64,000 nt of DNA from a virus. Location: IMG/VR virus record IMGVR_UViG_3300045988_114753; one strand, 5' to 3'. The notes beneath the pieces are model-generated. The model saw only the letters and a list, made by a program, of their open reading frames with translations, was not told where the DNA came from and did no database searches. Positions 44,594 through 62,363 of this stretch are shown piece after piece; positions within the stretch are counted from its first letter, which is position 1; each line of letters starts with the position of its first letter. Both the position numbers and the translations under genes were made by a program.

Positions 44594-47500
44594 ATGAATA
44601 AGGAATTTTACATTAAATTACAAGCGAAGTTAGAAAATAATGAAAAAACAGTTGCAGAGCTTAATAATCAGATTAAATCGCTACAAGGCAAAGTTTCAAA
44701 ATTACAATTAAAGGTTGACTCACAAAAAGTTTCTAAAGCCGATAAACAATTAAAATCATTTAATGATACAGCTAAAGAAGGACAGAAACAGGCTGATAAA
44801 TGGAATTATTCTTGGAGCAAAACTTTTCAATCGTTTACCACATATATGTCTGTAACAACGGTGTTCTATCAAGTTATACATACAATAAAAGATATGATTA
44901 GTGAAGTTACCGACCTTGATGGGGCATTAGTAGAATTGAAAAAAGTAACCGATTTAGAAGGAGAGTCTTTACAGAGATTTACAAAAGAAGCCTATGCTGC
45001 TGGTGCAAATGTTGCTAAAACTGGTACAGAAATGGTTGAGGCTGCTACATCATTTGCTAAGGCTGGTTACAATGAAGACCAAATTCTACAGCTTGGTGAA
45101 GTTGCTGCAATGTATACTAATATTGCTGACGAAGCTATTAGTAGTGCCGATGCCGCAGATTTTATTATTGCACAATTAAAAGCATTTAATTTAGAGTCTG
45201 ATGATTTGAACAAAACATTGGAAAATTCTTATCACATTATAGATGCGGTTAATGAGGTTTCAAATAACTTTGCTGTAAGTTCTTCAGATATTGCTACTAA
45301 TTTAGGTAAAGCAAGTTCAGTTATGGCGAACGCTGGTAACAGTATGGAACAAATGATTGGTTTAATGACTGCTGGTACTGAGGTAACACGTAATGCTAGT
45401 AAAGTGGCAAATGGATTAAAAACTATTACCCTACGTCTACAAGGAATGGACGATGAAGGAGAAAAGAACCTAGAATTAATGTCTCAAATGGAGGGATTAT
45501 TTAATAAGTTAGGAAAGACGGTTTATAATACCGACGGTACGCTTAAAAATACTTATGATTTATTAGGTGAGTTAGCAGATGTTTATCCAACATTAACGGC
45601 TGCTGAAAAGGCGTATGTTACCGAAACTATTGCTGGTAAGTATCAAGCACAAAATGCTGCTGCTATTTTATCTAACTGGAAAACTGCTGTTGACGCAACT
45701 GCCACAGCATTAGACTCGCAAGGCAGTGCTATGAAAGAAAATAGCAAATACCTGGATAGTATTCAAGGTAGGATGGCAAACTTTAATAGTGCTTTTGAGC
45801 AATTGTCTCAAAGTGTTATGAGTAGCGATTTGATAAAATGGTTTATTGATTTAGGTACAGCTATTGTAAATATTGCAAACAGTGACTTTGGTAAATTCTT
45901 AACCAAGTTTACTTTATTGTTTGTTTCAACAAAATCTGGTATTGTTATAATTGGAAAATTAATAGACACATTTAAAAAATTTGGAAAGTCTATATCTAGC
46001 ACTTATAGTGTTTTGCAAAAGTATAACGAACTCAATATCTTAACTAAAAACTCAACTAACGGTGTAGTAACCGCAGAAGAGGCTAAAATTTTAGTTCAAG
46101 GTAAGGCAATTTTGACTCAATTAGCCTTAAATGCTGCTATTGCTGCTGGAACAATTATTTTAATGGCTGCGGTATCAGCATATCAAAACGCGAAGGCTGC
46201 TCAAGAAGAACAAATTAAAAAGGTATCAGAGAATGCTCAGGCTTATGAAGATGAGGCTAGTAGCATAGATAATACTATTAAGAAATTCCAATCTTTAAGA
46301 GAAACATTAGATGACAATACATCTAGTTATCAAGACGCCTTGAGTGCAAGAGAAGAATTGATAGAAATACAAAAAAGTTTAAAGAAGGAATATGGCGATG
46401 AAGCAGATGATATTGATTTAGTAACTGGTTCTATTAGTGAACAAATAGAAAAGTTAAAGGAATTAAAAGCTCAACGTGCCAAAGATTATTTGAGCGATAA
46501 CCAAAGTGGTTACAATAACGCAAAAAAAGAAGTATACGGAAAGAATAATCATAGAAGAAATATGCTTATAGGCTCTGGTTATATTGATGTGAGAGATTAT
46601 GACTATGCCGTAAAACATAAACAAATGACCGAAGAAGAAGCTAAGGTATATAAAGAAAGAATAGCCAACGCAGAAAAATTTGATAAAGATATGCAGGATA
46701 TTTTAAAAAAATATTCTACTAAAAACTCTGTGAGGGATGATGGTCAAGGATTTATCAGTTTTAATACTAATAGTGTTGATAAATCTAAGAAAGCTTTAGA
46801 AGAGGTTAAAAAGTATCTTCAAGATAATGAAAAAGAAATTGTAAAATCTGGTATTATGTCTCAAGAGTCATTTAACTTTAGGTTGAATGAAGTTGATAAA
46901 GAATTAAACAATATAACTAAGAAATTTGGAGATAGTTATAAAGCAATAGAAGAATATGAAGACAAAATGAAGGACGCTGCTGGTTGGGAGTCTTTTAAAG
47001 GTAAACTTGAGGAACTATCTAAGACTACAGTTTTAAACAAAGATAATATTAAGGAACTATTAAAAGAATATCCTGGTCTTGAAGACGCTTTAAACAAAAA
47101 TGATATTACTATTGATAAGTTAATTAAAGATTTTCAAAATCTTAGTACAGTCACTGACACACTTATTTCTAATAACGAAGGTCTAGCAGATACTTTAGCT
47201 AATATTACTTTAGATGGTAAAGTAGACCAAACAGAAATGAATGAATTGCTTGAGAAGTTTCCAACTTTGAAAGAACAGTTAGATGGTACTGGTTATACTC
47301 TTGATGATATTATTGACAAATTCCCTGCCTTATTATATGCTGCCACAGGAACATTTGGTAGTATTATCGATGATTTGGATAATTTACAATCTGCATATGA
47401 AACAGTAACCTCTGCCTTAGAAGAATATAATAACACTGGTTATTTTTCAATAGACACGTTAGAACAATTATTAGTTTTAGACCAAAAATATTTGGATGCT

Positions 47501-49348
47501 TTAGTGGATGAGAATGGGGTCATTAGGGATAATACCTCCGCATTTCAAGTTTTAGCTAATGCTAAATTAGACGAATTACAGGCTTCAGAAGATAGCAGAT
47601 ATATGAAAGAATTAAATCGTCTAGCGTCTTTAAATGAGGCTGGTGCCGCACAGTTGGCTGCTAGTAGTATCAATGCACATAAAGACGCAATGGCTGGACA
47701 AGAGGTTAATGCCGAGGCTTTACGAGCTCAAATTCAAAAGAATATTGAGGCATTTAATGAAGAGTCTTCAGCAGCATTAAAAGCTGCTTATGATGTTAAT
47801 GAGGCTACACACAAAAGAAACAATGCAATCATAAACAATACCCGTCAGGGCTTAAAAAGTAATTACAAAGTTTCAATAGGTGGTTCTAGTAAAAAATCAT
47901 CAAGTAACAAATCTAAAAAATCTGAAAAAGAGTGGTGGGAAACTGAACTTGAAAAATTGAAAAATCAATTCAAGTACAATGAAATCACTATTGAAGAATA
48001 TATTAGAGGTTTAGATAACTTACTTGGCAGGGTACAAAAAGGAACAGATGCTTGGCGTAAAATTAATGAGGAACTTCAAAAGCAACGTTTGACTAAAGTT
48101 GAAGACGATTACAAACGTGGAACTATCAGTCTTGATGAGTACATTAAGAAGTTGAAAGAATTAATTAAGGCTTATAGACAAGGTTCTGATGCTTGGAATG
48201 ATTTAGCTGACAAAATCAAGAAAGCACTTCAAGATAAAGCAGATAAACAAAAAGATGATTTAGATACCGCTGAAGATGCTGCTGTAGGTATTATTGATGA
48301 TGAAATTGATAAGTTGAAGAAACTTAAAGAAGAGCAGGAAGATTATTACGATAAGTTAATCGATGATAAAAAAGCAGCTAACGATGAAACAGAAAAGGAA
48401 TTAGAATTAGCAAGACTTCAAGAGGCTTTAGCAAATGCTCAAAAAGAAAAAACTAAACGTGTATGGCGTGAAGGCATTGGTTGGGTATGGGAAGCCGACC
48501 AAGAAGCAATAAAAGATGCTCAAGAAGCTTTAGATGAGTTTAATAAAGAACAAGAACTAGACGCGTTAGAAAAACAAAAGGATGAAGCTATTAAGAATAT
48601 TGAAGACCAAATTGATGCTTGGGAAAAATATAAAGAGTCTTGGGAAAACGTTGCTGATGATTATGAAACACAACAGGCTCGTATGACGTTAGCTCAACAA
48701 TTAGGAGCCGATGCTGAAGCTAAAATTTTACAAAAACGACTAGACGTGTTAGAAGATTATAAATCTAAATATCTAGCAACAATGAAGGAAATTACTAATT
48801 TAGAAAATACACCTTCAGACAAGTTAAATGGATATAATACACCTAAAGATACAAATACAACAAATGGTAATAGTGGTTCAGGAGGTTCTTCTTCTAGTGC
48901 CCCATCATTAAATAAGGGTTCTTATGTATCAGTTAAACCTGGTACTAAATGGTATTCAAATTCTTATGGTGGTGGCAATAGTGGTACGGCACGTTCTGGA
49001 ACTATTAAATATATCAATAATGGTGGAAGCCATCCATATAACATTGATGGTTTAGGATGGGTTAAAAAGTCAGATATTGTTGGTTACAAGAATGGTGGTA
49101 TGGTTGATTATACAGGTTTGGCTATGTTACACGGTACAAAGTCAAAACCAGAATTTGTTTTAAATAATGACCAAATGAAGAGTATGTTGTCGAACTTTAT
49201 TAGACCACAAACATCTAGCAATCTTCCTTCAAAGAATGCAAGCGTAACAAATTATAATTTTGGTAATATTGAATTGCCAAATGTAAGCAATGCAAAACAA
49301 TTTGTAACAGAATTAAAATCTTTAGTAAATATAACAAAACATCAATAG
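44594..49348 (+). CDS. tail tape measure protein with C-terminal SH3b-like module
   Basis: 1584 aa. Extensive coiled coil and internal hydrophobic segments (LTQLALNAAIAAGTIILMAAVSAY). C-terminal KGSYVSVKPGTKWYSNS...HPYNIDGLGWVKKSDIVGY resembles the endolysin SH3b repeats. Confidence 0.8.
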   Translation: MNKEFYIKLQAKLENNEKTVAELNNQIKSLQGKVSKLQLKVDSQKVSKADKQLKSFNDTAKEGQKQADKWNYSWSKTFQSFTTYMSVTTVFYQVIHTIKDMISEVTDLDGALVELKKVTDLEGESLQRFTKEAYAAGANVAKTGTEMVEAATSFAKAGYNEDQILQLGEVAAMYTNIADEAISSADAADFIIAQLKAFNLESDDLNKTLENSYHIIDAVNEVSNNFAVSSSDIATNLGKASSVMANAGNSMEQMIGLMTAGTEVTRNASKVANGLKTITLRLQGMDDEGEKNLELMSQMEGLFNKLGKTVYNTDGTLKNTYDLLGELADVYPTLTAAEKAYVTETIAGKYQAQNAAAILSNWKTAVDATATALDSQGSAMKENSKYLDSIQGRMANFNSAFEQLSQSVMSSDLIKWFIDLGTAIVNIANSDFGKFLTKFTLLFVSTKSGIVIIGKLIDTFKKFGKSISSTYSVLQKYNELNILTKNSTNGVVTAEEAKILVQGKAILTQLALNAAIAAGTIILMAAVSAYQNAKAAQEEQIKKVSENAQAYEDEASSIDNTIKKFQSLRETLDDNTSSYQDALSAREELIEIQKSLKKEYGDEADDIDLVTGSISEQIEKLKELKAQRAKDYLSDNQSGYNNAKKEVYGKNNHRRNMLIGSGYIDVRDYDYAVKHKQMTEEEAKVYKERIANAEKFDKDMQDILKKYSTKNSVRDDGQGFISFNTNSVDKSKKALEEVKKYLQDNEKEIVKSGIMSQESFNFRLNEVDKELNNITKKFGDSYKAIEEYEDKMKDAAGWESFKGKLEELSKTTVLNKDNIKELLKEYPGLEDALNKNDITIDKLIKDFQNLSTVTDTLISNNEGLADTLANITLDGKVDQTEMNELLEKFPTLKEQLDGTGYTLDDIIDKFPALLYAATGTFGSIIDDLDNLQSAYETVTSALEEYNNTGYFSIDTLEQLLVLDQKYLDALVDENGVIRDNTSAFQVLANAKLDELQASEDSRYMKELNRLASLNEAGAAQLAASSINAHKDAMAGQEVNAEALRAQIQKNIEAFNEESSAALKAAYDVNEATHKRNNAIINNTRQGLKSNYKVSIGGSSKKSSSNKSKKSEKEWWETELEKLKNQFKYNEITIEEYIRGLDNLLGRVQKGTDAWRKINEELQKQRLTKVEDDYKRGTISLDEYIKKLKELIKAYRQGSDAWNDLADKIKKALQDKADKQKDDLDTAEDAAVGIIDDEIDKLKKLKEEQEDYYDKLIDDKKAANDETEKELELARLQEALANAQKEKTKRVWREGIGWVWEADQEAIKDAQEALDEFNKEQELDALEKQKDEAIKNIEDQIDAWEKYKESWENVADDYETQQARMTLAQQLGADAEAKILQKRLDVLEDYKSKYLATMKEITNLENTPSDKLNGYNTPKDTNTTNGNSGSGGSSSSAPSLNKGSYVSVKPGTKWYSNSYGGGNSGTARSGTIKYINNGGSHPYNIDGLGWVKKSDIVGYKNGGMVDYTGLAMLHGTKSKPEFVLNNDQMKSMLSNFIRPQTSSNLPSKNASVTNYNFGNIELPNVSNAKQFVTELKSLVNITKHQ

Positions 49349-49414
49349 GGTACCGACATTTATGTCGGTTCCTCTTGGTGCTGGATAAATAAAAAAAAAG
49401 AAAGGAGGATGTAT

Positions 49415-50894: not shown

Positions 50895-51746
50895 ATGTTA
50901 TTAACAAAATTAACAGTGAATAACAGTGTAAAATTAGACTTTCTTCATTTGGAGGAGGCTTCTTCTAATAATACTGATATTTTTAGTATTCCAAAATATA
51001 AGCCAACATTAAATAATGACTCGAGATTTTTAGCGACTTTTGATAATGCAACAACTACAGCACGTGGTATTGCAGACGTCGCTTTAGGTTATAATTTCTC
51101 AGTGTATAGAGAGGTTAATAATACAAATCAATTAAAATATATAGCAAGATTAGGTGAGGGTGCTTTAACTATGACCGATTATAATGTTGTTAATGACACA
51201 ACATATAAATATTATATATTTAAAGAGGACGAGTCTGCTATTTCTGAGGCGGTTGCTTCTAATAGTATTACGACTTGTTGGTGGGACTGGTCTTTAATAG
51301 ATTTAGTGCCAAGTACTACTGAAAAAGGATTGTATTATGCTAACCCAAATGCAATTTGGAAGTTTAATCTTAATATTTCTAGTGGCGGAGTGTCACAAAA
51401 TGTAAATAATACAACTTATAACAATTTAACACGATTTCCTAAAATATCTTCTGGTAAATTAAATTATGCTTCTGGCACTTTAACTTGTTTATTAGGAGAC
51501 GTACAAAACACAAACGATGGTCAAATCGGATATGTTGAGAGTGCTGCTCTTTTAGAGTCTTGGAATGATTTTTGTGCCAACGGAAACATAAAGTTGTTAA
51601 AAGACAGAAAGGGTAATGCTATGCTTGTAATGATTACAAGTACATCTTCTCAGGTCGATGATGTTTTGAGAGAACAGGTTAATACCATTACATTCTCTTG
51701 GACTCAAATAGCAGATGCTTCTAGTATTACTGTTATTGGTGCATAA
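50895..51746 (+). CDS. tail/baseplate structural protein (283 aa)
   Basis: GAAGGAGGA SD; position only. Confidence 0.5.
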   Translation: MLLTKLTVNNSVKLDFLHLEEASSNNTDIFSIPKYKPTLNNDSRFLATFDNATTTARGIADVALGYNFSVYREVNNTNQLKYIARLGEGALTMTDYNVVNDTTYKYYIFKEDESAISEAVASNSITTCWWDWSLIDLVPSTTEKGLYYANPNAIWKFNLNISSGGVSQNVNNTTYNNLTRFPKISSGKLNYASGTLTCLLGDVQNTNDGQIGYVESAALLESWNDFCANGNIKLLKDRKGNAMLVMITSTSSQVDDVLREQVNTITFSWTQIADASSITVIGA

Positions 51747-53011
51747 TGGCTAATTATAGTATAAAAGCTCTAGCAGACCAAACAAATAATGTTTTATGGA
51801 GTCAATATGGCGAAGTCTTACGTTTAGTAGATAGCTCTAGTATTAGTATGAGTTATTTAACAGATGTGTTGAAAAGACCAACTATAAAACCTCGTTTTAG
51901 ATTATTTGTTCTTAATCCTGATGAGACTATCAATTATGAAATTCCAGAAGAAGATATTATTATTAATTCTGGTAATTTTACAGAGAATTATCAGAATGGT
52001 CAAAGGAAGAGTGTAAACATAAATTTAATAAATATTGACGGAAAATATACGCCCAGCATTAATACAATATGGGTTCACGATAGATTTCGTTTTGATATAG
52101 GAGTAGAGTTTGATGGTCAGGTTTATTGGTTCCCAAGAGGTATTTATATCTTAGGTAATCCGAGTGCAGACCATCAAGACTCTGACAAACAAGTCAGTTT
52201 AACTTTGGTAGACAAATTTGCTGTATTAGAAGGTAAGGCTGGTACTTTAGAGGCAACTTATGAAATTCCTGTAGACTCAGATATTGAACAAGCTATTATG
52301 GGGATTTTAACGTTAGATAATGGGTCTGGTTATCCAATTGATTTAAAGCCTATTATTTATGATAGGGCTTTTAAAGGTTTGAAGATGCCATATACATTAT
52401 CTAAAGATGCAGGAAGCACATTAGGAGAAATGCTTTTAGAAATTGGTACTATCTTAAATGCAGAGGTTTATTATAATTCGCAAGGAAATTTGTGTTTTAT
52501 TAATATTAATGAGACGACGCTGGATGTCCAAAAAGCATCGTTATGGGATTATTCTGATGAAGATAGAAATTATGGTAGTGCTACTGCTAATTACGATTTT
52601 GAGAATGCCGTAAATGAGGTACACGTTGTTGGAGATAATATTAACAACGAGATATTTTCGGCAATGGCAAAAAATGAAAATCCAGTATCTCCATTATGTA
52701 TACAACGTATTGGTCGTCGTATTGAATATATCAACGACAGTAACATATATAGTGATGATTTAGCACAACAACGTGCCAATTATGAATTAAGAAAATTTGG
52801 TATCTTGAAAACTACTATGAATATTCAAGTATCTTTTAATCCACTTTTATTTGTTAATAATTTGGTAACAATTACTGATAAATACTATAATTTGGCAAGA
52901 GAAAGGTTTCTAATTCAATCAATATCATATACTATCGGTAATGAGTCACAAATGACCATAAGTTGTTCTAATATTGTCAACTTTAACCAGTACGCAAGTG
53001 GGGTGATGTAA
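51746..53011 (+). CDS. tail/baseplate structural protein (421 aa)
   Basis: ATG overlaps the previous stop; position only. Confidence 0.5.
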   Translation: MANYSIKALADQTNNVLWSQYGEVLRLVDSSSISMSYLTDVLKRPTIKPRFRLFVLNPDETINYEIPEEDIIINSGNFTENYQNGQRKSVNINLINIDGKYTPSINTIWVHDRFRFDIGVEFDGQVYWFPRGIYILGNPSADHQDSDKQVSLTLVDKFAVLEGKAGTLEATYEIPVDSDIEQAIMGILTLDNGSGYPIDLKPIIYDRAFKGLKMPYTLSKDAGSTLGEMLLEIGTILNAEVYYNSQGNLCFININETTLDVQKASLWDYSDEDRNYGSATANYDFENAVNEVHVVGDNINNEIFSAMAKNENPVSPLCIQRIGRRIEYINDSNIYSDDLAQQRANYELRKFGILKTTMNIQVSFNPLLFVNNLVTITDKYYNLARERFLIQSISYTIGNESQMTISCSNIVNFNQYASGVM

Positions 53012-53012
53012 C

Positions 53013-53384
53013 GTGGATTTTGACGTAAAACAAATTGCTGAATTTAAGAAAGTAATAGAAGACATTGTAGACGCTCGTTTGAAGAGTTATGGTATTACTT
53101 CTTTTGTGGCAGCTGTTGTAACTAAGGTTAATGACGATGGTACAGTCAACGTTACTATACCACCTGATAATAGCAGATTTGTAAATAATGTATTAAATAA
53201 AAGTAATGAGTCGTTATCTACTGGCGACTCTGTTGAACTATGTACTAAAAATGGTAGATTATCCAATGCTTGGGTAGCTATCAAACACGGTAAAAGTGTA
53301 TCTGGTGGTTCGCTAGAAGACCGTGTAAAGTACCTTGAAGATAATGCTCTTATCTTCGTAAAAACAGGAGAATATAACGGATAA
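53013..53384 (+). CDS. small baseplate-region protein (123 aa), possibly an OB-fold spike-like protein
   Basis: GTG start after GGGGTGA. VTKVNDDGTVNVTIPPD...GDSVEL...NAWVAI loosely resembles gpV/gp5-type OB folds. Weak. Confidence 0.4.
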   Translation: MDFDVKQIAEFKKVIEDIVDARLKSYGITSFVAAVVTKVNDDGTVNVTIPPDNSRFVNNVLNKSNESLSTGDSVELCTKNGRLSNAWVAIKHGKSVSGGSLEDRVKYLEDNALIFVKTGEYNG

Positions 53385-53399
53385 AAGGAGTGAATTAAT

Positions 53400-53489
53400 A
53401 TGAGAAATTACTCGATTAGGGGGGGCGACACATCAATAAGATTGTTGTGCCCTCTAACTTTCAAGAGAAAGGAGGTATGTTATAGTTAA
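53400..53489 (+). CDS. 29-codon leader-like ORF carrying a G7 tract (remnant cassette 0)
   Basis: The only unit in the array with an SD (AAAGGAG, 9 nt upstream). MRNYSIRGGDTS... with G7 at 53419-53425, analogous to the Y-E-G-G-G position of the cassettes. Its stop lies in the loop of the following terminator. Confidence 0.4.
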   Translation: MRNYSIRGGDTSIRLLCPLTFKRKEVCYS

Positions 53490-53503
53490 TATACCTCTTT
53501 TTG
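53471..53503 (+). terminator. intrinsic terminator between the baseplate genes and the collar-cassette array
   Basis: GGAGGTAT-12 nt-ATACCTCT followed by TTTTT. Confidence 0.6.
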
Positions 53504-53528
53504 GTATAACAATCTTTGCGATTTTTTT

Positions 53529-54016
53529 ATGAATAAAGGCAAAACATATGTAAAAAATAGTCCCGTCCTTATAAATGCAAGTTCAATATTGTATGAGGGG
53601 GGGGCAAGACGCTTGATAAACTCTTTGATTTAGTTTATCCAGTTGGCAGTGTCTATATGAGCACGAACTCCACAAGTCCAGAAACACTTTTCGGGGGTAG
53701 TTGGACTAAGATAGAAGGTAGGTTTTTATGGGCAACTATAAATACACCAATGACCACAGGCGGCAGTTTTTCACATAAACATTATGCGGGCTCTTTAGTG
53801 GCTTGCTATGACCCTAAAAATAGTTGGAATAATGCTTCGTTTAGAGTTAAAGATGTAGATGGAGGATGGACTTTAAGTGGGTATATGGGTGAAAGTAGAA
53901 GTTGGGCAGATGGTGGTGGGGCTGCTGGTAGAGGAATAGAAGTAATTGGATATACATCAGATGACTGGACACTCCCACCATACTTTGAAGTATATATGTG
54001 GTATAGAACTGCTTAA
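53529..54016 (+). CDS. tail-collar-domain cassette 1, frame broken at G8 (53597-53604)
   Basis: Leader MNKGKTYVKNSPVLINASSILYEGG stops at 53631-53633. The body (track ORF 53657..54016) continues upstream in the -1 frame as GGGKTLDKLFDLVYPVGSVYMS. G9 or G6 would fuse them. Confidence 0.6.
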
Positions 54017-54032
54017 TAATGCGTCGAATTTT

Positions 54033-54499
54033 ATGATGGATTATGGAAAAATTTATTGTAAAGGTAAAAATGTCAATCTAAATGCTTCTCAATCTTATTA
54101 CGAGGGGGGGGCAGGACGTTAGCTGACTTATTGGATTTAGTATATCCAATCGGTTCCATTTATATGAATACTAATAATGTCAATCCCCAATCTATATTTG
54201 GTGGTGTTTGGCAAAAAATTGAAGGTAGGTTTTTACTAGGTTCTAGTGGCAATTATATTTTAGGGTTACTCGGAGGAGAAGCCACACATACTTTGACTGT
54301 AAGTGAAATGCCGAAGCACAAGCCTTCAATATTATTAAACACACAAGATAGTTATACTAGTGGTTCTGCTGCAAATTGGCAGGTAGTAACTAATGGTAGG
54401 TATTATGCTGGTGATATGTTTTTGGAAATTGGTGGTAGCCAAGCTCATAATAATATGCCACCTTATTTAGTAGTCAATATTTGGAAGCGAACAGCATAG
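54033..54499 (+). CDS. tail-collar-domain cassette 2, frame broken at G8 (54104-54111)
   Basis: Leader MMDYGKIYCKGKNVNLNASQSYYEGG. Body in the -1 frame: GGGRTLADLLDLVYPIGSIY...GGEATHTLTVSEMPKHK...GGSQAHNNMPPYLVVNIWKRTA. G9 or G6 restores the frame. Confidence 0.65.
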
Positions 54500-54508
54500 T
54501 CCGATTTT

Positions 54509-54946
54509 ATGACTAAACCTTATGGAAGAATTTATAAAAATAAAACAAACGTTTCTATAGATGCATTGGACTTATATAATGTATGGCCAGTTGGTTCGAT
54601 ATATATATCTGTCAATAATACGAACCCATCTACATATTTTGGTGGAACTTGGGTAAGTTTTGGTGCTGGCAGATGTTTAGTTGGTGTAGATACATCACAA
54701 ACAGAATTTAATACAGTACAAAAGACTGGTGGAGAAAAAAGACATACATTAACAGTAAATGAAATGCCAAGTCACAATCATCATTTTTTTAGAGGAACAG
54801 ATGGTACAAATTATTTTGGGGTTACTGGTAAGGAACCTAATGGTGGTAGCCCATATCAAGTTGATACAAGCTCTGCTGGTGGCGGTCAATCGCATAACAA
54901 CTTACAACCATACATAACAGTCTATATGTGGAAACGTACAGCTTAA
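54509..54946 (+). CDS. tail-collar-domain cassette 3 (intact, no poly-G)
   Basis: 145 aa. WPVGSIY, NPSTYFGGTW, GGEKRHTLTVNEMPSHNH and GGGQSHNNLQPYITVYMWKRTA, the COG4675/Pfam Collar pattern. No SD. Confidence 0.75.
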   Translation: MTKPYGRIYKNKTNVSIDALDLYNVWPVGSIYISVNNTNPSTYFGGTWVSFGAGRCLVGVDTSQTEFNTVQKTGGEKRHTLTVNEMPSHNHHFFRGTDGTNYFGVTGKEPNGGSPYQVDTSSAGGGQSHNNLQPYITVYMWKRTA

Positions 54947-54974
54947 AGCAAAGATTAAACTATAACGTAATATT

Positions 54975-55521
54975 ATGGATTACGGTACAATTAAACACAA
55001 AAATAATAATACGCAACTTCTTTCTCAATCAATCTTACATCAGTATGAGGGGGGGGCAGCGTAGTCTAAATTTAATTCTTGATAACATATATCATATAGG
55101 AAGTATATATATATCAGTAAACGCTATTAATCCCTCTGAATATTTTGGAGGGGTATGGGAACAATTTGCTCAAGGTAAAACTTTATTTGGTGTCGATAGT
55201 ACACAGACAGATTTTAATACTACATTAAAAACTGGTGGGAGTATGACACACCAACATTTTTATAGGATTGGTTATAGACCATATTATGGGGCACTTACTG
55301 GTGGTGATAGTGAAGCTATAATGGCGTATAATTATGGCACACAGTCTTGGTCAAAAGGTACCAAAGATGCTGGAATAGGAGCGAGTCCAGTTAGAAATAA
55401 AGGATTAACAGCCAGCTATAACGAAATTGATGCGGCAAGATATAGTGTTGGGGCTTATACTCAATATACAAGCACGCTTCCTCCTTATATAGTGGTTTAT
55501 ATGTGGAAAAGAATTAGTTAG
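54975..55521 (+). CDS. tail-collar-domain cassette 4, frame broken at G8 (55049-55056)
   Basis: Leader MDYGTIKHKNNNTQLLSQSILHQYEGG stops at 55062-55064. Body in the +1 frame: (M)RGGQRSLNLILDNIYHIGSIY. G7 or G10 fuses them. The ATG embedded at 55045 is in the body frame. Confidence 0.65.
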
Positions 55522-55535
55522 ACGTAGCGAATATT

Positions 55536-55986
55536 ATGAAAAATATTGGCGATATAAAAAATAAAAATATAGATGCTCTCTTAAACTCAAAGAATATTTA
55601 CTATGAGGGGGGGCAAGACTTTAAATAATATAATTTACCCGATAGGTTCGGTCGTTATAAGAGTTGACAGCCAAAACCCTTCATACTGGTATGGGGGAAC
55701 TTGGGAACTATTATGTCCAGGTAGAACGATGGTGTGTATTGACACCAATGATAGCGATTTTAATGTTATTAAGAAAACTGGAGGTAGTAAATACCTACAA
55801 AAACATCATCACGGTATTCCACAGGCTCATCCTTGGAATAACAAGACTAGTAACCACTGGAGTTTGTTAAGAACTCAAACTGAGTATGTCACTGAATATA
55901 ATGTGGATACTAGTGATACTGGAGATGGTAATAGTGGAAACTTGCAACCTTATATGGTCGTTTATATTTGGGTAAGAACAAAATAA
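55536..55986 (+). CDS. tail-collar-domain cassette 5, frame broken at G7 (55607-55613)
   Basis: Leader MKNIGDIKNKNIDALLNSKNIYYEGG stops at 55626-55628. Body in the +1 frame (track ORF 55603..55986, MRGGKTLNNIIYPIGS). G6 or G9 fuses them. Confidence 0.65.
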
Positions 55987-56001
55987 TTTAAAGTCGTATT
56001 T

Positions 56002-56521
56002 ATGAATAAAGGAAATACTTATAATAAAAATCAACAAGCTCTCATAACTTGTAACAATATACTTTACGAGGGGGGGGGCAACGTTAGATAGGATTTTATA
56101 TCCTGTCGGAAGTATTTATATGAGTGTTAACTCAACAAACCCTAGTCAATTATTTGGCGGCACGTGGCAAGAAATAACTGGTAGATTTTTGTATTGTACT
56201 AATAATAGTAAAGAACTTGGTGGTAGCAATACGACTGGAAGTACTGTGCTGGATGTCAGCCAAATACCAGGTCATCAACATATGGGAAGGAACTACTCTA
56301 ATAACTGGAATGCTGGAATATCTATACCACCTGGTAGGTCTTATGCTAAAAATTACGCTGGAGGTAATGGTCAATGGGCTTATAGTGCTGACCAATGGAT
56401 AGGTGGTAGTGAGATAAATGAAATGGTTGAAACAGGATTTACAGGTGGAGGTCAAGGACATACACACCCACAAAATTTACCACCATATTTTACAGTTTAT
56501 TGTTGGTATAGAGTGAGTTAA
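56002..56521 (+). CDS. tail-collar-domain cassette 6, frame broken at G9 (56070-56078)
   Basis: Leader MNKGNTYNKNQQALITCNNILYEGGG stops at 56089-56091. Body in the +1 frame: ATLDRILYPVGSIYMSVNSTNPSQLFGGTW. G8 fuses them. Confidence 0.65.
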
Positions 56522-56549
56522 TAATAAATACAAATAACGTAAAAGAATT

Positions 56550-57040
56550 ATGACTAATTATGGAAAAACAAAAGTTAAAGATTTACCTGTCTTAATCTCA
56601 GACAAAAGCATCTTTTGTGAGGGGGGGGCAGGTTATTAAGTGATATTATTTATCCAGTAGGGTCTATTTATATTAGTGTAAATTCTACCAATCCTAGCGT
56701 TTATTTTGGTGGTAGTTGGGAGCAAATAAAAGATAGATTTTTGCTTGCTTGTGGTGACACTTATAATAATGGTATTTTTGGAGGAGAGGCAAAACATAAA
56801 TTAACAGTAAATGAAATGCCAAGTCATAGCCACGATATGGATGAGGAGTCTTATGGTGGTGGAGGCTACAAAAATAAAATGGGTATTCGACAAGATGGTG
56901 GTGGTTCAAGCCATTGGACTCCTCAATATGCACAAACAACAAGTTATTCTACATATAAACCAACATATACAGGCGGTGGTCAAGCTCATAATAATATGCC
57001 TCCATACTTTACGGTATATATATGGAAAAGAACTGGGTAA
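56550..57040 (+). CDS. tail-collar-domain cassette 7, frame broken at G8 (56621-56628)
   Basis: Leader MTNYGKTKVKDLPVLISDKSIFCEGG stops at 56637-56639. The body frame is open from 56627: GRLLSDIIYPVGSIYISVNSTNPSVYFGGSW...EMPSHSH...GGGQAHNNMPPYFTVYIWKRTG. G9 fuses them. The track shows only the 3' part (56741..57040). Confidence 0.65.
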
Positions 57041-57058
57041 TATCACAAAACCGATTTT

Positions 57059-57544
57059 ATGGCAAAATCATATGGAAAAATTTATCAACATAAGAACAAC
57101 GTTTCAATTACACCTACAGATGTGTACAATTTATATCCTGTAGGCTCAATATATCTATCAGTTAATAATACCAACCCTTCCGAATACTTTGGAGGCATCT
57201 GGGAAAAGGTTTCTGGTGGATATATTTATTGTGCAAGTACATCTTTAGAGAAAACTAATTATTATGGCTGGGGTACTCAAAGTCATACACTAAATGTTGA
57301 CCAAATACCAAAGCACGGACATTGGGTTTTAGCACTAAATAAGAACCCTAATGGTTATAATTACAGTTTCAATATGGACTATGACTCACCAGGTGCTAAA
57401 TGTGCAGTAGATTATTCGACTACATACAATATTGATGAACGTGGCTGGGGAAATAGTGTTGGAATGCAAATGACTGGAGGAAATCAAGGGCATACTCACA
57501 ATATAGCTACTATAGATGTATTTATGTGGAAACGTGTTGCTTAG
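57059..57544 (+). CDS. tail-collar-domain cassette 8 (intact, no poly-G)
   Basis: 161 aa. MAKSYGKIYQHKNNVSITPTDVYNLYPVGSIYLSVNNTNPSEYFGGIW...GGNQGHTH...VFMWKRVA. No SD. Confidence 0.7.
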   Translation: MAKSYGKIYQHKNNVSITPTDVYNLYPVGSIYLSVNNTNPSEYFGGIWEKVSGGYIYCASTSLEKTNYYGWGTQSHTLNVDQIPKHGHWVLALNKNPNGYNYSFNMDYDSPGAKCAVDYSTTYNIDERGWGNSVGMQMTGGNQGHTHNIATIDVFMWKRVA

Positions 57545-57558
57545 AAAGAAGGGATAAA

Positions 57559-57975
57559 ATGGCTTTATATAAAGAAATCGTCGAAGATAATGGTGTTGTG
57601 TCAAAATATTTTAGAATTTCTAATATATCATTTAATATTGACAGCAAAAATATTTCTGTTGGTGTTAAAGAATATGCAGACAGCATTTATCGTGACAAAG
57701 AAAAGAAAATAAGAAAAATACAAGAAGATATTAATAACAGACAATCTGAAATAAATATTCTTAATGAAGATTATAGAAATAACGAAGAAGAAATATTGAA
57801 ACAAAACAAAGAAATGGCTGTTTTAGTAAATGAATTAAATGAATTAAATACTAAAAATTATTCTGTAGGTGAGAAACAGTATAATTTCGATTTTGAAGAT
57901 AAAGATTATTCTATGTCAGATTGTTATAATTTATTAAAAGAATTAGATGTATTTGAAGATAGTGTTGATGTTTAA
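57559..57975 (+). CDS. coiled-coil protein (138 aa from ATG 57559)
   Basis: ATG follows GAAGGGA. The track start at 57526 overlaps cassette 8. Confidence 0.55.
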   Translation: MALYKEIVEDNGVVSKYFRISNISFNIDSKNISVGVKEYADSIYRDKEKKIRKIQEDINNRQSEINILNEDYRNNEEEILKQNKEMAVLVNELNELNTKNYSVGEKQYNFDFEDKDYSMSDCYNLLKELDVFEDSVDV

Positions 57976-57989
57976 AAGGAGGGATATTT

Positions 57990-58388
57990 ATGGCTCAACA
58001 AACATTAAATAATGGTGTGTCTGGTAAAGTCTTTAGAGATATTTTAAATCAAAATTTTACAGACCTTTACACAAATAAAGCACCAAAAAATCACGCTTCT
58101 ACGACAACTGATTACGGTGTAGCAACTGGTACAAATTACGGTCACATTAAAGTCACAACTGGTAATGGTTTAAATCTTACAAGTGGAACCTTATCATTAG
58201 CGGCAGCTACTACATCTGATGCTACGGCTGGTACAGCTACAAATATGGTTATGACACCAGCAAGAGTAAAAGACGCCGTTAATGCTTACGGTGTAATGAG
58301 TGATGGAAATACAATTATTAAAGTTGGGGGGACACAACCAACAGCACAAACAGGTAAAACAATAATTTGGATTAATACTGCAAGTTAG
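57990..58388 (+). CDS. tail-fibre-like protein (132 aa, Thr/Ala/Gly-rich)
   Basis: AAGGAGGG SD. N-terminus LNNGVSGKVFRDILNQNFTDLY is reminiscent of fibre N-termini. Weak. Confidence 0.4.
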   Translation: MAQQTLNNGVSGKVFRDILNQNFTDLYTNKAPKNHASTTTDYGVATGTNYGHIKVTTGNGLNLTSGTLSLAAATTSDATAGTATNMVMTPARVKDAVNAYGVMSDGNTIIKVGGTQPTAQTGKTIIWINTAS

Positions 58389-58401
58389 GAGGTGTAGATA
58401 G

Positions 58402-59514
58402 ATGGCTTGGATAAGTGAGGCTAATTCCAGTAGTTATGTAAATGTAGCTACCAATGTTGGTGCAGACATAAGAAATGTATCAAGAAATGGTACATCTGTT
58501 TATTTTGAGTATAGAGCATATATTTATCAGAGTACTTCCACTTGGTCTAGTAATACCTGGGCTTTATGGGTAGAAGGAAATAGAAATGTAGTAAAAGATA
58601 GTGGTACACATTCTAGCCAAGGAACCAAATATTATACAGGTTGGTATGGAAAAACAGTCAGTTTAGGAACTGGTTCTAGTTATACAGAAGTTAGTGTTGG
58701 GGTGGCAGGTAAAAACTATGCGGCATCCAGTCCAAATGGTTATGTTACTTTAGGAGTACATGATTTACCAACTGTTGGGAAACCATCATTAAGTAATATC
58801 AGTGTAGGAGCGGTTGGAGACAAATCAGTTTATGCTTCGTTTTATGTTACCAATAATAATAACCAAGCTCCATATAGCCCGTATATTGATGTGTCGGCGT
58901 CTAATTTTGGTGCTGCTGTATCTACAATTAATGCTAGAGCGGGTACTTTAAGTGGGTTAGACCCTAACAGAACATATTATGTTCGAGGAAACGATGCTAA
59001 TGATGCTGGTAGAAGCTATACTAATGTTGCAAGTTTCACAACTTCTTACACTAATCCTGGTGCACCAGGTAAGCCAGTATTGAGTTACGACCAAACAGAG
59101 CCTATTCCAAAAGCAAAATTAACAGCTTCTTGGATTGCAGCATCTGCTGGTTCTACTGCGATTGCTGGTTATAGAATAAGACTATATAAGAATGGCACTG
59201 AAGTTACACTGATAGATACAGAAAACACTGGTATTTCATACACATTCGACTCTTTTGAGAGTTATGGGTTTGTACCAGGAGATGTCGCTCAAGTGGGCAT
59301 TTATTCTTATTCAAAAGACTGGGCTGGTAATAAACATTTTAATGGTGGCGGAAGTGGTAGTGCACAAGTCTATAGTAATACTTTAACTATTATTTCTGAC
59401 AAATTTATTTATGCTTCAGTAAATGGTGGAGCATTTGATAAATACAAGATGTATGTCAGTCAAGATGGCGGTTCGTTCGTAGAAGTAAAAAAAGAAAAGT
59501 TTAAGGTTATTTAG
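58402..59514 (+). CDS. tail protein with fibronectin type III-like domains
   Basis: GKPSLSNISVGAVGDKSVYASFYV...LSGLDPNRTYYVRGNDANDAGRSYTNVASFTT fits the FN3 pattern. A second similar unit follows (GKPVLSYD...IAGYRIRLYKNG). Confidence 0.5.
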   Translation: MAWISEANSSSYVNVATNVGADIRNVSRNGTSVYFEYRAYIYQSTSTWSSNTWALWVEGNRNVVKDSGTHSSQGTKYYTGWYGKTVSLGTGSSYTEVSVGVAGKNYAASSPNGYVTLGVHDLPTVGKPSLSNISVGAVGDKSVYASFYVTNNNNQAPYSPYIDVSASNFGAAVSTINARAGTLSGLDPNRTYYVRGNDANDAGRSYTNVASFTTSYTNPGAPGKPVLSYDQTEPIPKAKLTASWIAASAGSTAIAGYRIRLYKNGTEVTLIDTENTGISYTFDSFESYGFVPGDVAQVGIYSYSKDWAGNKHFNGGGSGSAQVYSNTLTIISDKFIYASVNGGAFDKYKMYVSQDGGSFVEVKKEKFKVI

Positions 59515-59907: not shown

Positions 59908-60051
59908 ATGTCAAAGAAAGAAAATATTGAAGAAGTAGTTGAAAATGTTGAAGAAGTAGAAGTTCAAACAGTTTTCAATGAGGACGGATTAGATGTGCTT
60001 TGTACAGAGGACACAATAGTAGAAAATATTAATGCAGAGGAGGGTGAATAA
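59908..60051 (+). CDS. small acidic protein (47 aa), below ORF-track cutoff
   Basis: AAGGAGGA SD 7 nt upstream. MSKKENIEEVVENVEEVEVQTVFNEDGLDVLCTEDTIVENINAEEGE. Fills the holin-endolysin gap. Confidence 0.45.
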   Translation: MSKKENIEEVVENVEEVEVQTVFNEDGLDVLCTEDTIVENINAEEGE

Positions 60052-60052
60052 T

Positions 60053-61156
60053 ATGGGTCAATTCACAGTAAGATATAGTCTTCCTGCAAGTGGAAACAAG
60101 TTATATAATAATGGTAATGCTGGTGGATGGTCTTGGTGTATCAATGGTAGCCCAACAAAATCAGGATTAAATGTCCTTTCAAACTGTGTTGGATGGGCTT
60201 GTTCAAGATTTAATGAAATTTACAACGAAATTACAGGTAATAATGGAATGAAATACAAAACATTATGTTGTAATGCTGAAAATTTCATTGAAAGAGCAAA
60301 ACAAGCTGGTCTTGAAGTTGGTATGACACCAAAACCAGGTGCTATTATGTGTTGGGAAAAGGGTGCTACTTTATCTGGAAGTGATGGTGCTGGTCACGTT
60401 GCTATCTGTGAAATAGTATACGACAACAATCACGTATTCACTTCTGAAAGCGGATATGGTGGAAGTGCATTCTGGAACTCACATAGATATAATACAAATG
60501 GACGTTGGGGTTTAGGCAGTGGTTATACATTTAGAGGATTTATTTATAACCCAGCCGTTAAAGATGAACCAAAACCAACACCTACTCCATCAAGTAAATT
60601 TAATATTGGAGATAAAGTAGTTATTAATGGTGCTTTATATAGAAGTTCTAATGCTTCATCTGCTTCAGGTAGTGTTAGCAATAAAATTACTAATATTACT
60701 AGAAAAGTATCTGGTGCAGCACATCCATACAATACAACTGGTGATTTAGGATGGATGGACGAGGCTTCTATTACCAAATATGAAGAACCAAAACCATCAA
60801 CTGGTCAAAAGTTTGCTATTGGTACTAAAGTAGTTATTAACGGTGCATTATACACTAGTTCTAATGCTGATAGTGCTGCTGGTTATGTAAACAATAAAAC
60901 TACTTATATTACTAGATACGCTGCTGGTTCTAAACATCCATATAATACAACTGGAGACTTAGGTTGGATGGATGAAGGAGCTATCACTGCTTATTCTGGC
61001 GGTATCACATATACAGTTAAAAAAGGAGATACTCTTAGTGGCATTGCTGCTAAATATGGTATGACTTGGCAACAAGTTTACGCTAGAAATAAGTTTGTAA
61101 TTGGTAACAATCCTAATATTATTAGACCAGGACAAGTACTAGTTATTAAAGATTAA
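60053..61156 (+). CDS. endolysin: CHAP domain, two SH3b-like repeats and LysM
   Basis: CHAP catalytic context NCVGWACSRF ... GHVAICE. Tandem repeats ..GDKVVINGALYRSSNA..HPYNTTGDLGWMDE.. (2 copies). LysM YTVKKGDTLSGIAAKYGMTWQQVYARNK...IRPGQVLVI. Confidence 0.85.
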   Translation: MGQFTVRYSLPASGNKLYNNGNAGGWSWCINGSPTKSGLNVLSNCVGWACSRFNEIYNEITGNNGMKYKTLCCNAENFIERAKQAGLEVGMTPKPGAIMCWEKGATLSGSDGAGHVAICEIVYDNNHVFTSESGYGGSAFWNSHRYNTNGRWGLGSGYTFRGFIYNPAVKDEPKPTPTPSSKFNIGDKVVINGALYRSSNASSASGSVSNKITNITRKVSGAAHPYNTTGDLGWMDEASITKYEEPKPSTGQKFAIGTKVVINGALYTSSNADSAAGYVNNKTTYITRYAAGSKHPYNTTGDLGWMDEGAITAYSGGITYTVKKGDTLSGIAAKYGMTWQQVYARNKFVIGNNPNIIRPGQVLVIKD

Positions 61157-61256: not shown

Positions 61257-62363
61257 ATGAGAAGGATATATTTAGATAATGCGGCGTCAACACCTCTTGA
61301 TAAGCGTGTTTTAAAAGCTATGAAGCCATATTTGACTAAAGTGTATGGGAACCCTAGCAGTGTTCATAAAGAAGGCAGAGAGGCACGTATGGCTATTGAG
61401 AAAGCTCGTAAAACTATTGCTGGGATATTAAATTGTAGTCCAGAAGAAATATTCTTTACAAGTGGTGCTAGTGAAGGTAATTCGTGGGTATCAAAAAACT
61501 TTAAGTATTATTGTACTGATAATTCACACGACTCGATGATGTTAGCAAATAATGATAACGAAGATGGTTTACTTTCTTATCCGCTATTAGCCAGTGAGAC
61601 TGGGGAAATGAGTTATTTAGCAAACAATTTTGGTCAATGCCATATAGATTTAACACAGGCGATTGGTAAGTTGGATGTCAATTTGTATGATTACAAGACC
61701 GATACCTCAAATGGCACTTCTTCAATAACGCTATATAATGATTTACTAGGATTAGGAAAGTGTGCCACAGCGTCATTTAGTGGACATAAATTTGGAGCCC
61801 CAAAAGGTGTTGGAGTATTGTTTATAAGAAAGCAATATCAAAAAGATTTTGTACCGCTTATATATGGGCATCAAGAAAATGGTTTACGTGGTGGTACAGA
61901 AAATGTGGCTGGTATTGTTGGTATGGCGGAAGCATTAAGAATAGCTATCAAGGAATTACCTAAAAATCGTCAACATATTAGAGAAATGCAAGACTATATA
62001 ATGATACACGCTAATTACCCCGCAAAAATAAAAACCGATAATGTTCCTATATTCTGGAATTGGGCAGGCTTTCGTTATGTCAGAGTGGAAGGACATAATG
62101 GTATTATAAACATTACTTTCAATCATTTGGACGCTCAAACTGCTGTGCAAATATTTGATAGAGAAGGCGTTGCTATTTCGGCAGGAAGTGCTTGTAATTC
62201 AGGTACAGATGAACCATCAAGAGCTCTTATGGCTTCAGGTTATGAAGAAGAAGAGGCGAAGAGAACTATAAGAGTATCATTGGGTAAACAAAATACAATG
62301 CGTGAGGTAAAGAAATTTATTAAAATATTACGAAAAGTTATTGACAATTATGACAAAGAGTAG
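61257..62363 (+). CDS. class V aminotransferase / NifS-IscS-like cysteine desulfurase
   Basis: [50 protein letters not shown] (PLP lysine context), LRGGTENV and SAGSACNSG (catalytic Cys loop). Confidence 0.75.

Follow-up and report, generated by a model that had tools for sequence, protein, structure and literature searches.

We propose that a tandem array of tail-tip genes in IMG/VR virus record IMGVR_UViG_3300045988_114753 is a set of phase-variable recognition genes switched by guanine homopolymers. The 64-kb stretch of this record that was analysed (the window) contains eight adjacent genes, here called cassettes c1 to c8, that appear to encode receptor-binding-type heads. In six of them a poly-G tract sits between a short leader and the head, or body. 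Comparative genomics makes it very likely that these six tracts are slipped-strand contingency loci. Tract lengths are hypervariable among nearly identical genomes, alleles that fuse leader and body in one frame (ON) occur alongside alleles that do not (OFF), the bodies of OFF cassettes are under selection, and leader/head hybrids have arisen at the tracts.

The G runs stand out against the composition of the window, which is 31.7% G+C. A run count returned exactly seven runs of seven or more G, all inside 53419-56628 (Table 1), against an expectation of 0.33 under a model of independent, identically distributed bases. The next longest is a single G6 at 58326-58331, and C runs of at least six are absent from the 64 kb. 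This count reproduces what an earlier reading of the bare letters (the sequence-only reading) had picked out by eye. All six coding tracts share the context (T/C)(A/G)YGA-Gn-CA and lie where a leader of 22-24 aa meets a Gp10_C body. The same reading had noted that Gly is mostly GGT or GGA elsewhere, and codon counts agree with it: outside the array GGG accounts for 7.7% of the Gly codons and GGG-GGG for only 1 of 50 Gly-Gly pairs. The paralogous proteins are only 25-47% identical to one another, yet GA-Gn-CA is kept throughout, and the CA behind the tract is read in three codon phases: as GGC AAG in c1, c2, c5 and c7, as CAG in c4 and as GCA in c6. c1 and c4 have the 16-mer GTATGAGGGGGGGGCA in common. 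Conservation of the flanks across codon phases in diverged paralogues points to selection at the nucleotide level or to homogenisation by recombination.

To determine which tract lengths fuse leader and body, we translated each cassette in three frames and resized every tract in silico. The resulting lengths (Table 1) match those tabulated in the sequence-only reading. As sequenced, all six coding tracts leave the body out of frame with the leader, a pattern with a probability of ∼0.09 if phases were random. That reading had also stressed that each tract is a single G away from ON. This is true of all six, but a tract that is out of frame always lies within one step of a length that is in frame, so that the observation has no evidential value and we dropped it as an arithmetical necessity.

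Evidence of a different kind comes from assemblies of this phage in gut metagenomes, about 19 independent ones, built with SPAdes, MEGAHIT and Logan or taken from IMG/VR. In these we carried out the comparison of homologous arrays that had been suggested as a check. All seven tracts are polymorphic with lengths of 7-10: of the 71 observations that 13 assemblies provided, 43 deviate from the window. Control runs differed from the window in 0 of 124 observations for A/T6, 0 of 9 for G6 and 5 of 61 for A/T7. The contrast is clearest in pairwise comparisons. L010 and L105 differ over 11.4 kb by one single-nucleotide polymorphism (SNP) outside the tracts and by four indels, all four at tracts, while L001 and L014 differ over 14.4 kb by 11 SNPs and three indels, again all at tracts. 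L021 is separated from the window by seven SNPs and a sole indel, located at the c6 tract, which turns c6 ON. In L011, 20 SNPs and seven indels separate it from the window, with five of the indels at tracts. Five of seven tracts thus differ, compared with 20 substituted positions among 14,378, and in this comparison a change per tract is a few-hundred-fold likelier than a change per ordinary nucleotide.

Some other homopolymers near the array also vary. A T7 at 53522-53528, directly upstream of the c1 ATG, ranges from 6 to 9 in relatives, a T7 at 54784-54790 inside c3 is T8 in L011, where it breaks this constitutive gene, and an intergenic A9 at 49391-49399 is A8 in most relatives.

ON alleles were observed for five of the six cassettes. 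c1 is ON at G9 in six assemblies (L001, L010, L011, L013, L018, L107), c2 in three (G9 in L018 and L023, GAA+G8 in L106), c4 at G10 in two (L009/L104 and L018), c6 in five (G8 in L013, L017, L021 and L105, G9 plus a 1-nt deletion in L106) and c7 at G9 in eight (L009, L010, L011, L013, L014, L017, L105, L106). In total 28 of 91 coding-tract observations are ON, with 0-3 cassettes ON per assembly and an ON/OFF pattern unique to nearly every assembly. The ON form of c7 is also represented among public proteins (P0001, 163 aa, 99% identical), in a database cluster of 54 member sequences. c5 with its own body was found at G7 or G8 only, and it was ON in none of ∼16 assemblies.

Whether ON or OFF, the bodies keep a full-length frame in all ∼90 observations, and the pooled ratio of non-synonymous to synonymous polymorphism rates (pN/pS) is 0.06-0.65. 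The lowest value is that of c5, with 14 synonymous and 3 non-synonymous differences. By this measure OFF bodies appear to be under purifying selection and not decaying. The tract itself is retained in L003, a relative at only 76% DNA identity. The features expected of a contingency locus can thus be recognized here: runs of G7-G9, at or above the usual threshold of about seven, lie inside six reading frames and one mini open reading frame (mini-ORF); polymorphism exceeds background (43/71 compared with 0/124 and 0/9 for A/T6 and G6); and the frame toggles while function is retained, with c5 seen OFF only. Taken together, hypervariable tracts, ON and OFF alleles, stable controls and conserved bodies form the footprint of slipped-strand contingency loci, in agreement with the proposal of the sequence-only reading.

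That reading had also raised slippage at the RNA level or ribosomal frameshifting. In such a recoding scheme a YonO-like polymerase, or the ribosome on GGG GGG G, would slip at designed out-of-frame sites and provide every virion with a low dose of each head, with variation in DNA length a mere by-product. All six tracts are indeed OFF in this genome, the phage encodes a YonO-type polymerase, runs of G7-G10 are known to permit perfect tRNA re-pairing in shifted frames, and c5 is strongly conserved although never ON in ∼16 assemblies. However, a programmed site has a fixed length and a constant direction of shift, whereas each tract occurs in two to three lengths among near-identical genomes (7-10 overall) and the shift needed is +1 or -1 depending on the cassette and on the genome. 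In-frame alleles are moreover common (∼30%), frame-restoring changes are found outside the run, and we saw no conserved downstream stimulatory structure at the coding tracts. RNA-level slippage is thus unneeded to explain the data, and as the designed mechanism we consider it improbable. Leaky decoding of OFF alleles on the G8-G10 run is possible as a second layer beside DNA slippage, which would help account for c5 being conserved though never ON.

The tracts also double as breakpoints for deletion and recombination, yielding leader/head hybrids. A c1 leader is joined to a c2 body in L015 and L027, a c5 leader to a c7 body in L015 (the sole case of an ON c5 leader) and a c6 leader to a c7 body in L023, each with its breakpoint at the tract. 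These coding hybrids are all ON, at G9. In L019, which differs from L013 by one SNP over 7.4 kb, the tract of the upstream t0 element described below is joined straight to the c7 body with the intervening DNA deleted; the t0/c7 hybrid is OFF, and c8 is the one complete cassette retained. In L002, with flanks 96% identical, the anchor gene that precedes the array and the whole array are absent. The array is therefore mosaic as well as phase-variable, with cassette numbers ranging from 1 (L019) to 8. In a separate group of relatives (L001, L014, L016, L017) the head-specificity part of c1 is replaced by other sequence (L001 12022-12296 against window 53766-54453) and c2 is absent.

One could argue from the hybrids that the tracts are primarily recombination sites, at which GA-Gn-CA swaps or deletes heads, with the reading frame of lesser importance. 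Four types of hybrid that break precisely at a tract, the ON state of all coding hybrids at G9 and the conservation of the flanks in three codon phases would suit this explanation. Deletions between direct repeats are irreversible, however, and rarer, since hybrids occur in 4 or 5 assemblies and length changes in nearly all; in addition, 12-16 nt of homology needs no homopolymer. As a replacement for phase variation we therefore rate recombination as slightly less probable still than recoding; it is an added property of the tracts. Two other routes to variable heads, an invertase shufflon and a diversity-generating retroelement, were rejected, as we found only short AT-rich inverted repeats of the kind expected by chance and all cassettes lie on the + strand. 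No recombinase or reverse transcriptase domain was detected among the called genes within 7-10 kb of the locus in relatives.

Sequencing or assembly error at homopolymers, around true tracts that are all in frame and of fixed length, would likewise confine differences to the runs, and some contigs are of low coverage (3.8x, 6.4x) or, like L024, end exactly at a tract. Yet in-frame lengths account for only ∼30% of the tract calls, c5 is in frame in none of the assemblies and recurs at lengths of 7 or 8, and OFF tracts are also present in a contig of 272x coverage (L106). The calls come from different pipelines (SPAdes, MEGAHIT, Logan), and the window is 100% identical to L020 (ENA contig ERZ27261664 k99_27635) over 10.3 kb. 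G6 and A/T6 runs are invariant, and although the window contains 162 A/T runs of at least 6, all its other genes are unbroken. Error also cannot produce tract-to-tract hybrids or compensating changes outside the run, such as the GAA+G8 of c2 and the 1-nt deletion behind the c6 tract (G9 = ON) in L106. Decay of six dead duplicates that would leave c3 and c8 as the only functional genes might be suspected from the six OFF states in the window and the loss of some or all cassettes in L002, L015 and L019, but it is contradicted by full-length body frames in ∼90 observations at pN/pS 0.06-0.65, by ON alleles of five of the six cassettes in other genomes and by retention of the tract in paralogues at 25-47% identity and in L003. 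The comparative results combined effectively rule out both read error and pseudogene decay, each of which we regard as extremely unlikely.

For the contingency array we propose the following mechanism. An ancestral single tail-tip protein, composed of an anchor and a Gp10_C head, would have given rise to the anchor gene and eight tandem head genes, with a leader of ∼23 aa docking each head on the anchor or the baseplate. The heads of c3 and c8 would always be readable, and in each of the other six a run of G7-G10 encodes the linker. Slipped-strand mispairing while the phage DNA replicates would add or drop a G and so join or separate the frames of leader and head, in a heritable and reversible manner and independently for each cassette. 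Many 'phasotypes' (up to 2^6), differing in their sets of heads, could then coexist in a phage population, a mixture that may serve as bet-hedging when host receptors vary. Together with their GA-Gn-CA flanks, the tracts would additionally allow tract-to-tract deletion and recombination, producing hybrids and altered cassette numbers. We infer replication slippage as the mechanism, reversibility within a population, docking through the leader and an effect on host range from the comparative pattern.

Several observations weigh against this interpretation. An ON fraction near 1/3 would also be expected from unselected phase drift, and the consistent OFF state of c5 with its own body is not predicted by simple neutral switching. 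All of the evidence derives from consensus assemblies, and some of these are of low coverage (3.8x, 6.4x). Receptor binding and leader docking are deduced from homology and gene order only, and the leader is modelled with low confidence. A Shine-Dalgarno sequence is absent from all eight cassette starts, while neighbouring genes carry a strong GGAGG. Finally, a scan of contigs for a host or prophage with a c7-type head gave 55-63% identity at best.

The identification of the cassettes as heads derives from several searches. All eight match Pfam Gp10_C (PF21939) with 47-119 bits, from profile positions 1-5 to 139, compared with a curated cut-off of 27 bits. The sequence-only reading had described a collar-domain body in receptor-binding-type cassettes; the family is Gp10_C rather than a 'collar' family as such. 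When a profile of cassette homologues was searched, the C-terminal domain of T4 gp10 in the PDB was the first match, and a fold search gave the same result. An AlphaFold monomer of the ON c7 protein reached a mean predicted local distance difference test score (pLDDT) of 65, with the leader and a variable insert unreliable, as expected for an interwoven trimer; this model served solely to confirm the gp10 C-terminal fold. The cassettes are also ∼30% identical to proteins of Lactobacillus delbrueckii phages annotated as 'antireceptor'. Together with their position behind the tape measure gene, two tail genes, a tail/hub gene and the anchor gene, this suggests that they are receptor-binding-type heads docked via the leader. 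In the relatives L004 and L005 the anchor N-domain (∼95 aa) is fused directly to one Gp10_C head, in proteins of 284 and 242 aa. In the lineage of the window the anchor thus appears to have been split from the head and the head multiplied. c3 and c8 lack the ∼12-15 aa YEGGG-x-TL linker segment altogether.

How the cassettes are translated is a related question. c2-c8 begin 9-28 nt past the stop of the preceding cassette, and CG(A)ATTTT lies directly before the ATG of c1, c2, c3 and c8. A promoter scan found 31 candidates against 27 expected from shuffles, no better than chance. Translation of the cassettes may proceed by coupling or by a non-Shine-Dalgarno mechanism. In c4 (55044-55046) and c5 (55603-55605) an ATG within tATGAg is in frame with the body at G8 and G7, respectively. 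Leaderless ORFs starting MRGG... result at the sequenced lengths, for example c5 55603-55986 of 127 aa, and a public protein, P0078 (MRGGGRLLSD...), resembles them. The OFF state may therefore comprise two sub-states, one with leaderless MRGG heads.

The seventh tract lies in front of the array and had been read as part of a remnant leader. We find instead that it belongs to a conserved, structured element, here called t0, made up of a mini-ORF with a strong Shine-Dalgarno sequence and two hairpins. The tract, 7-9 in relatives, forms the 5' arm of hairpin 1, where it pairs with CCCUCU, and hairpin 2, which has a 16-bp stem and includes GGAGGUAUG, precedes a U run and resembles a terminator. 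The folding z-score of the two hairpins is -7.1, and none of 200 shuffles was as stable. A consensus terminator scan of 52900-58500 found none, its loop and GC rules being such that both t0 hairpins are missed. Tract length decides where the mini-ORF ends: in the window G7 gives 29 aa and G8 28 aa, with the stop in hairpin 2, and G9 gives 13 aa, with the stop in the loop of hairpin 1.

Elements of the same type occur upstream of head arrays in the unrelated myovirus L022 and in a second locus of this phage. Their mini-ORFs, of 7-8 codons, read MRNYSIRGG, MFRKMFIGGG or MMFRIIRGGG (general form M-F/R-x-x-x-I-R/G-Gn). They share a layout of Shine-Dalgarno sequence, mini-ORF, a variable poly-G that supplies the 5' arm of a first hairpin, and another hairpin with GGAGGUAU in it, and their folding z-scores range from -3.5 to -7.1. 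In L022, G8 or G11 gives a mini-ORF of 35 aa that overlaps the ATG of the first cassette and G10 one of 14 aa. We hypothesize that t0 controls the whole array in a phase-variable manner through its leader peptide, by means of either attenuation or translational coupling. An alternative role for t0 as an expression site that receives silent cassettes by gene conversion was rejected, as the one t0 hybrid (L019) is OFF and c3 and c8 also lack a Shine-Dalgarno sequence.

The second locus lies ∼15 kb downstream of the anchor gene, outside the window, and was seen in L110, L115 and L109. It begins with a paralogue of the anchor (116 aa, ∼61% identical over residues 10-97), after which come small genes that are not Gp10_C, with a leader of the MSKSIKLKDN type and three G8-G10 tracts that vary between assemblies. 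This would be a further phase-variable recognition locus of the phage. The two loci could be organized in two layers. In the first, a poly-G linker joining a docking leader to a Gp10_C or other head would make each cassette independently switchable, and in the second a t0-type element would gate transcriptional read-through or translational coupling of the array through the frame-dependent stop of its mini-ORF. It is conceivable, and offered here tentatively, that this arrangement is a mobile module common to gut Bacillota phages, spread among unrelated sipho- and myoviruses and present twice in this phage.

The phage itself is probably a gut siphovirus of ∼110 kb with a Bacillota host. Its lysin has CHAP and LysM domains, and the cultured phages closest to it, those of Enterocloster and Thomasclavelia, reach 26-34% protein identity, consistent with the Gram-positive type assumed in the sequence-only reading. 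The YonO-like RNA polymerase invoked there is also present, as a 916-aa protein that matches PF05183. A comparison of the locus with 50,697 phage records by megablast gave zero matches. The exact 123-aa anchor sequence is indexed in 346 blocks of a public assembly collection, mostly human-gut metagenomes. L027, considered as a host or prophage, proved to be a fragment of this phage binned in a metagenome-assembled genome (MAG). Two features of the region downstream of the array deserve mention. The lysin gene contains two direct repeats of ∼200 bp, ∼75% identical, that cross-match in all relatives. Adjoining the lysin and replication genes is a gene of 368 aa, an unusual cargo for a phage; the orthologue found in relatives hits PF00266 (aminotransferase class V, cysteine-desulfurase-like).

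Table 1. Features of the array, its surroundings and related elements (window coordinates unless a relative is named; lengths are numbers of G).
Feature	Position	Strand	G tract	Fusing lengths	Observed	Remarks
YonO-type polymerase	22415-25165					916-aa ORF; PF05183 (RdRP family), E=3e-19; family of single-subunit phage RNA polymerases
Tape measure	44594-49348
Tail/hub gene	51746-53011
Anchor	53013..53384	+				123 aa; first ∼95 aa = N-terminal domain of the anchor+head tail protein of relatives
t0 mini-ORF	53400..53489	+	53419-53425		7	MRNYSIRGG...
t0 hairpin 1	53416-53457	+
t0 hairpin 2	53467-53502	+
t0 element, whole	53400-53502
c1	53529..54016	+	53597-53604	9/6	8	Gp10_C, E=5e-12; OFF
c2	54033..54499	+	54104-54111	9/6	8	Gp10_C, E=4.5e-21; OFF
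c3	54509..54946	+				Gp10_C, E=4.5e-34; intact, 145 aa; tract-free, hence constitutive
c4	54975..55521	+	55049-55056	7/10	8	Gp10_C match; OFF
c5	55536..55986	+	55607-55613	6/9	7	Gp10_C match; OFF
c6	56002..56521	+	56070-56078	8/11 (5 also fuses)	9	Gp10_C match; OFF
c7	56550..57040	+	56621-56628	9/6	8	Gp10_C match; OFF
c8	57059..57544	+				Gp10_C, E=9e-14; intact, 161 aa; tract-free, hence constitutive
Lysin	60032-61156					CHAP+LysM
Lysin repeats	60563-60762; 60782-60975
PF00266-type gene	61257-62363					368 aa
t0-type element, L022	6905-7030
t0-type elements, L115	5845-5990; 6985-7100

Poly-G tracts at the leader/head junction of tandem Gp10_C cassettes are found beyond this phage. The myovirus L022 has a G10 at this position and a head 74% identical to that of c7. 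A Clostridia MAG from roe deer (L054) carries three cassettes, G9 OFF, G11 OFF and G8 ON, and a 'Candidatus Gallimonas' contig from chicken (L057, 51% G+C) carries two, both G9 OFF. The nucleotides flanking the tract are different in each of the three. The presence of junction tracts in unrelated prophages of deer and chicken gut suggests a general design. In the array of the window up to 64 combinations of tips would be available on top of two constitutive ones, with cassette shuffling at the same sites. Host-range prediction from a consensus genome would be unreliable for such phages. It would be wrong to discard tail genes of viromes as pseudogenes or errors because they look 'frameshifted', and existing public read sets suffice for a direct test of switching.

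Phage tail fibres can also be switched by site-specific inversion (Mu Gin, P1 Cin) and by diversity-generating retroelements (BPP-1). The array resembles these systems in purpose, in that a population would carry alternative receptor-binding tips, and differs from them in mechanism, with no invertase or reverse transcriptase near the locus, no meaningful inverted repeats and co-oriented cassettes. The heads themselves resemble the trimeric heads of T4 gp10/gp12 type (PF21939; PDB 2fkk, 5iv5), with all eight cassettes matching the family at E 5e-12 to 4.5e-34. In T4 gp10 this domain is the C-terminus of a 600-aa baseplate protein, whereas here it is free-standing, in proteins of 145-182 aa with a short leader.

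Simple-sequence contingency loci form the phasomes of bacteria such as Campylobacter jejuni, Haemophilus and Neisseria, as outlined in PMC11868660. Like them, the array has poly-G runs 7-10 long within reading frames, consists of several loci that vary independently and combine into phasotypes, and concerns proteins of surface interaction. Unlike the phasomes it is viral, and all of its switches lie in one paralogous array at a homologous codon. Homopolymer contingency loci with replication slippage, reversible frameshifts and bet-hedging have also been described in T2, T4 and other phages, where they are mostly poly-A of at least 6 across ordinary genes (e.g. agt) with variant frequencies near 1e-3 (bioRxiv 10.1101/2025.10.21.683753). 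In contrast, the tracts described here are rare G runs that go against codon bias, are found in a dedicated linker of recognition cassettes and differ between samples at the consensus level.

The array compares most directly with the poly-G genes of Campylobacter phages, which to our knowledge are the only phages in which poly-G phase variation of recognition genes has been proven experimentally. In full-text searches we found no published report of such tracts in Bacillota phages, in gut viromes or in multi-cassette arrays, in line with the earlier remark that such an array was unreported for a phage of Gram-positive type. The phage lies outside the Campylobacter-phage lineage (Fletchervirus or Firehammervirus), as shown by the lack of a DNA match to phage records, the Enterocloster and Thomasclavelia phages as closest cultured relatives and the CHAP+LysM lysin. 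For Campylobacter phages, Sorensen et al. 2021 (Cell Rep 35:109214; as cited in PMC11868660, PMC12823448 and PMC10877375) described polyG tracts that are hypermutable and lie in genes of receptor-binding proteins; according to these accounts length changes switch expression and generate subpopulations with different receptor use. Passages on the subject in recent reviews still cite Campylobacter phages as the sole case of phase variation in phage receptor-binding proteins. Both systems place a G homopolymer in a receptor-binding-type gene of an AT-rich phage. The Campylobacter-phage system rests on experiments, and the array is known from its sequence. It differs in belonging to a Bacillota-type gut phage, in its small Gp10_C head with the tract always at the leader/head junction, in the arrangement of six switchable paralogues and two constitutive ones in one tandem array, and in the additional use of the tracts as recombination breakpoints. 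What appears to be new is poly-G switching of recognition genes in another phage lineage and host phylum, in the form of a multi-cassette array.

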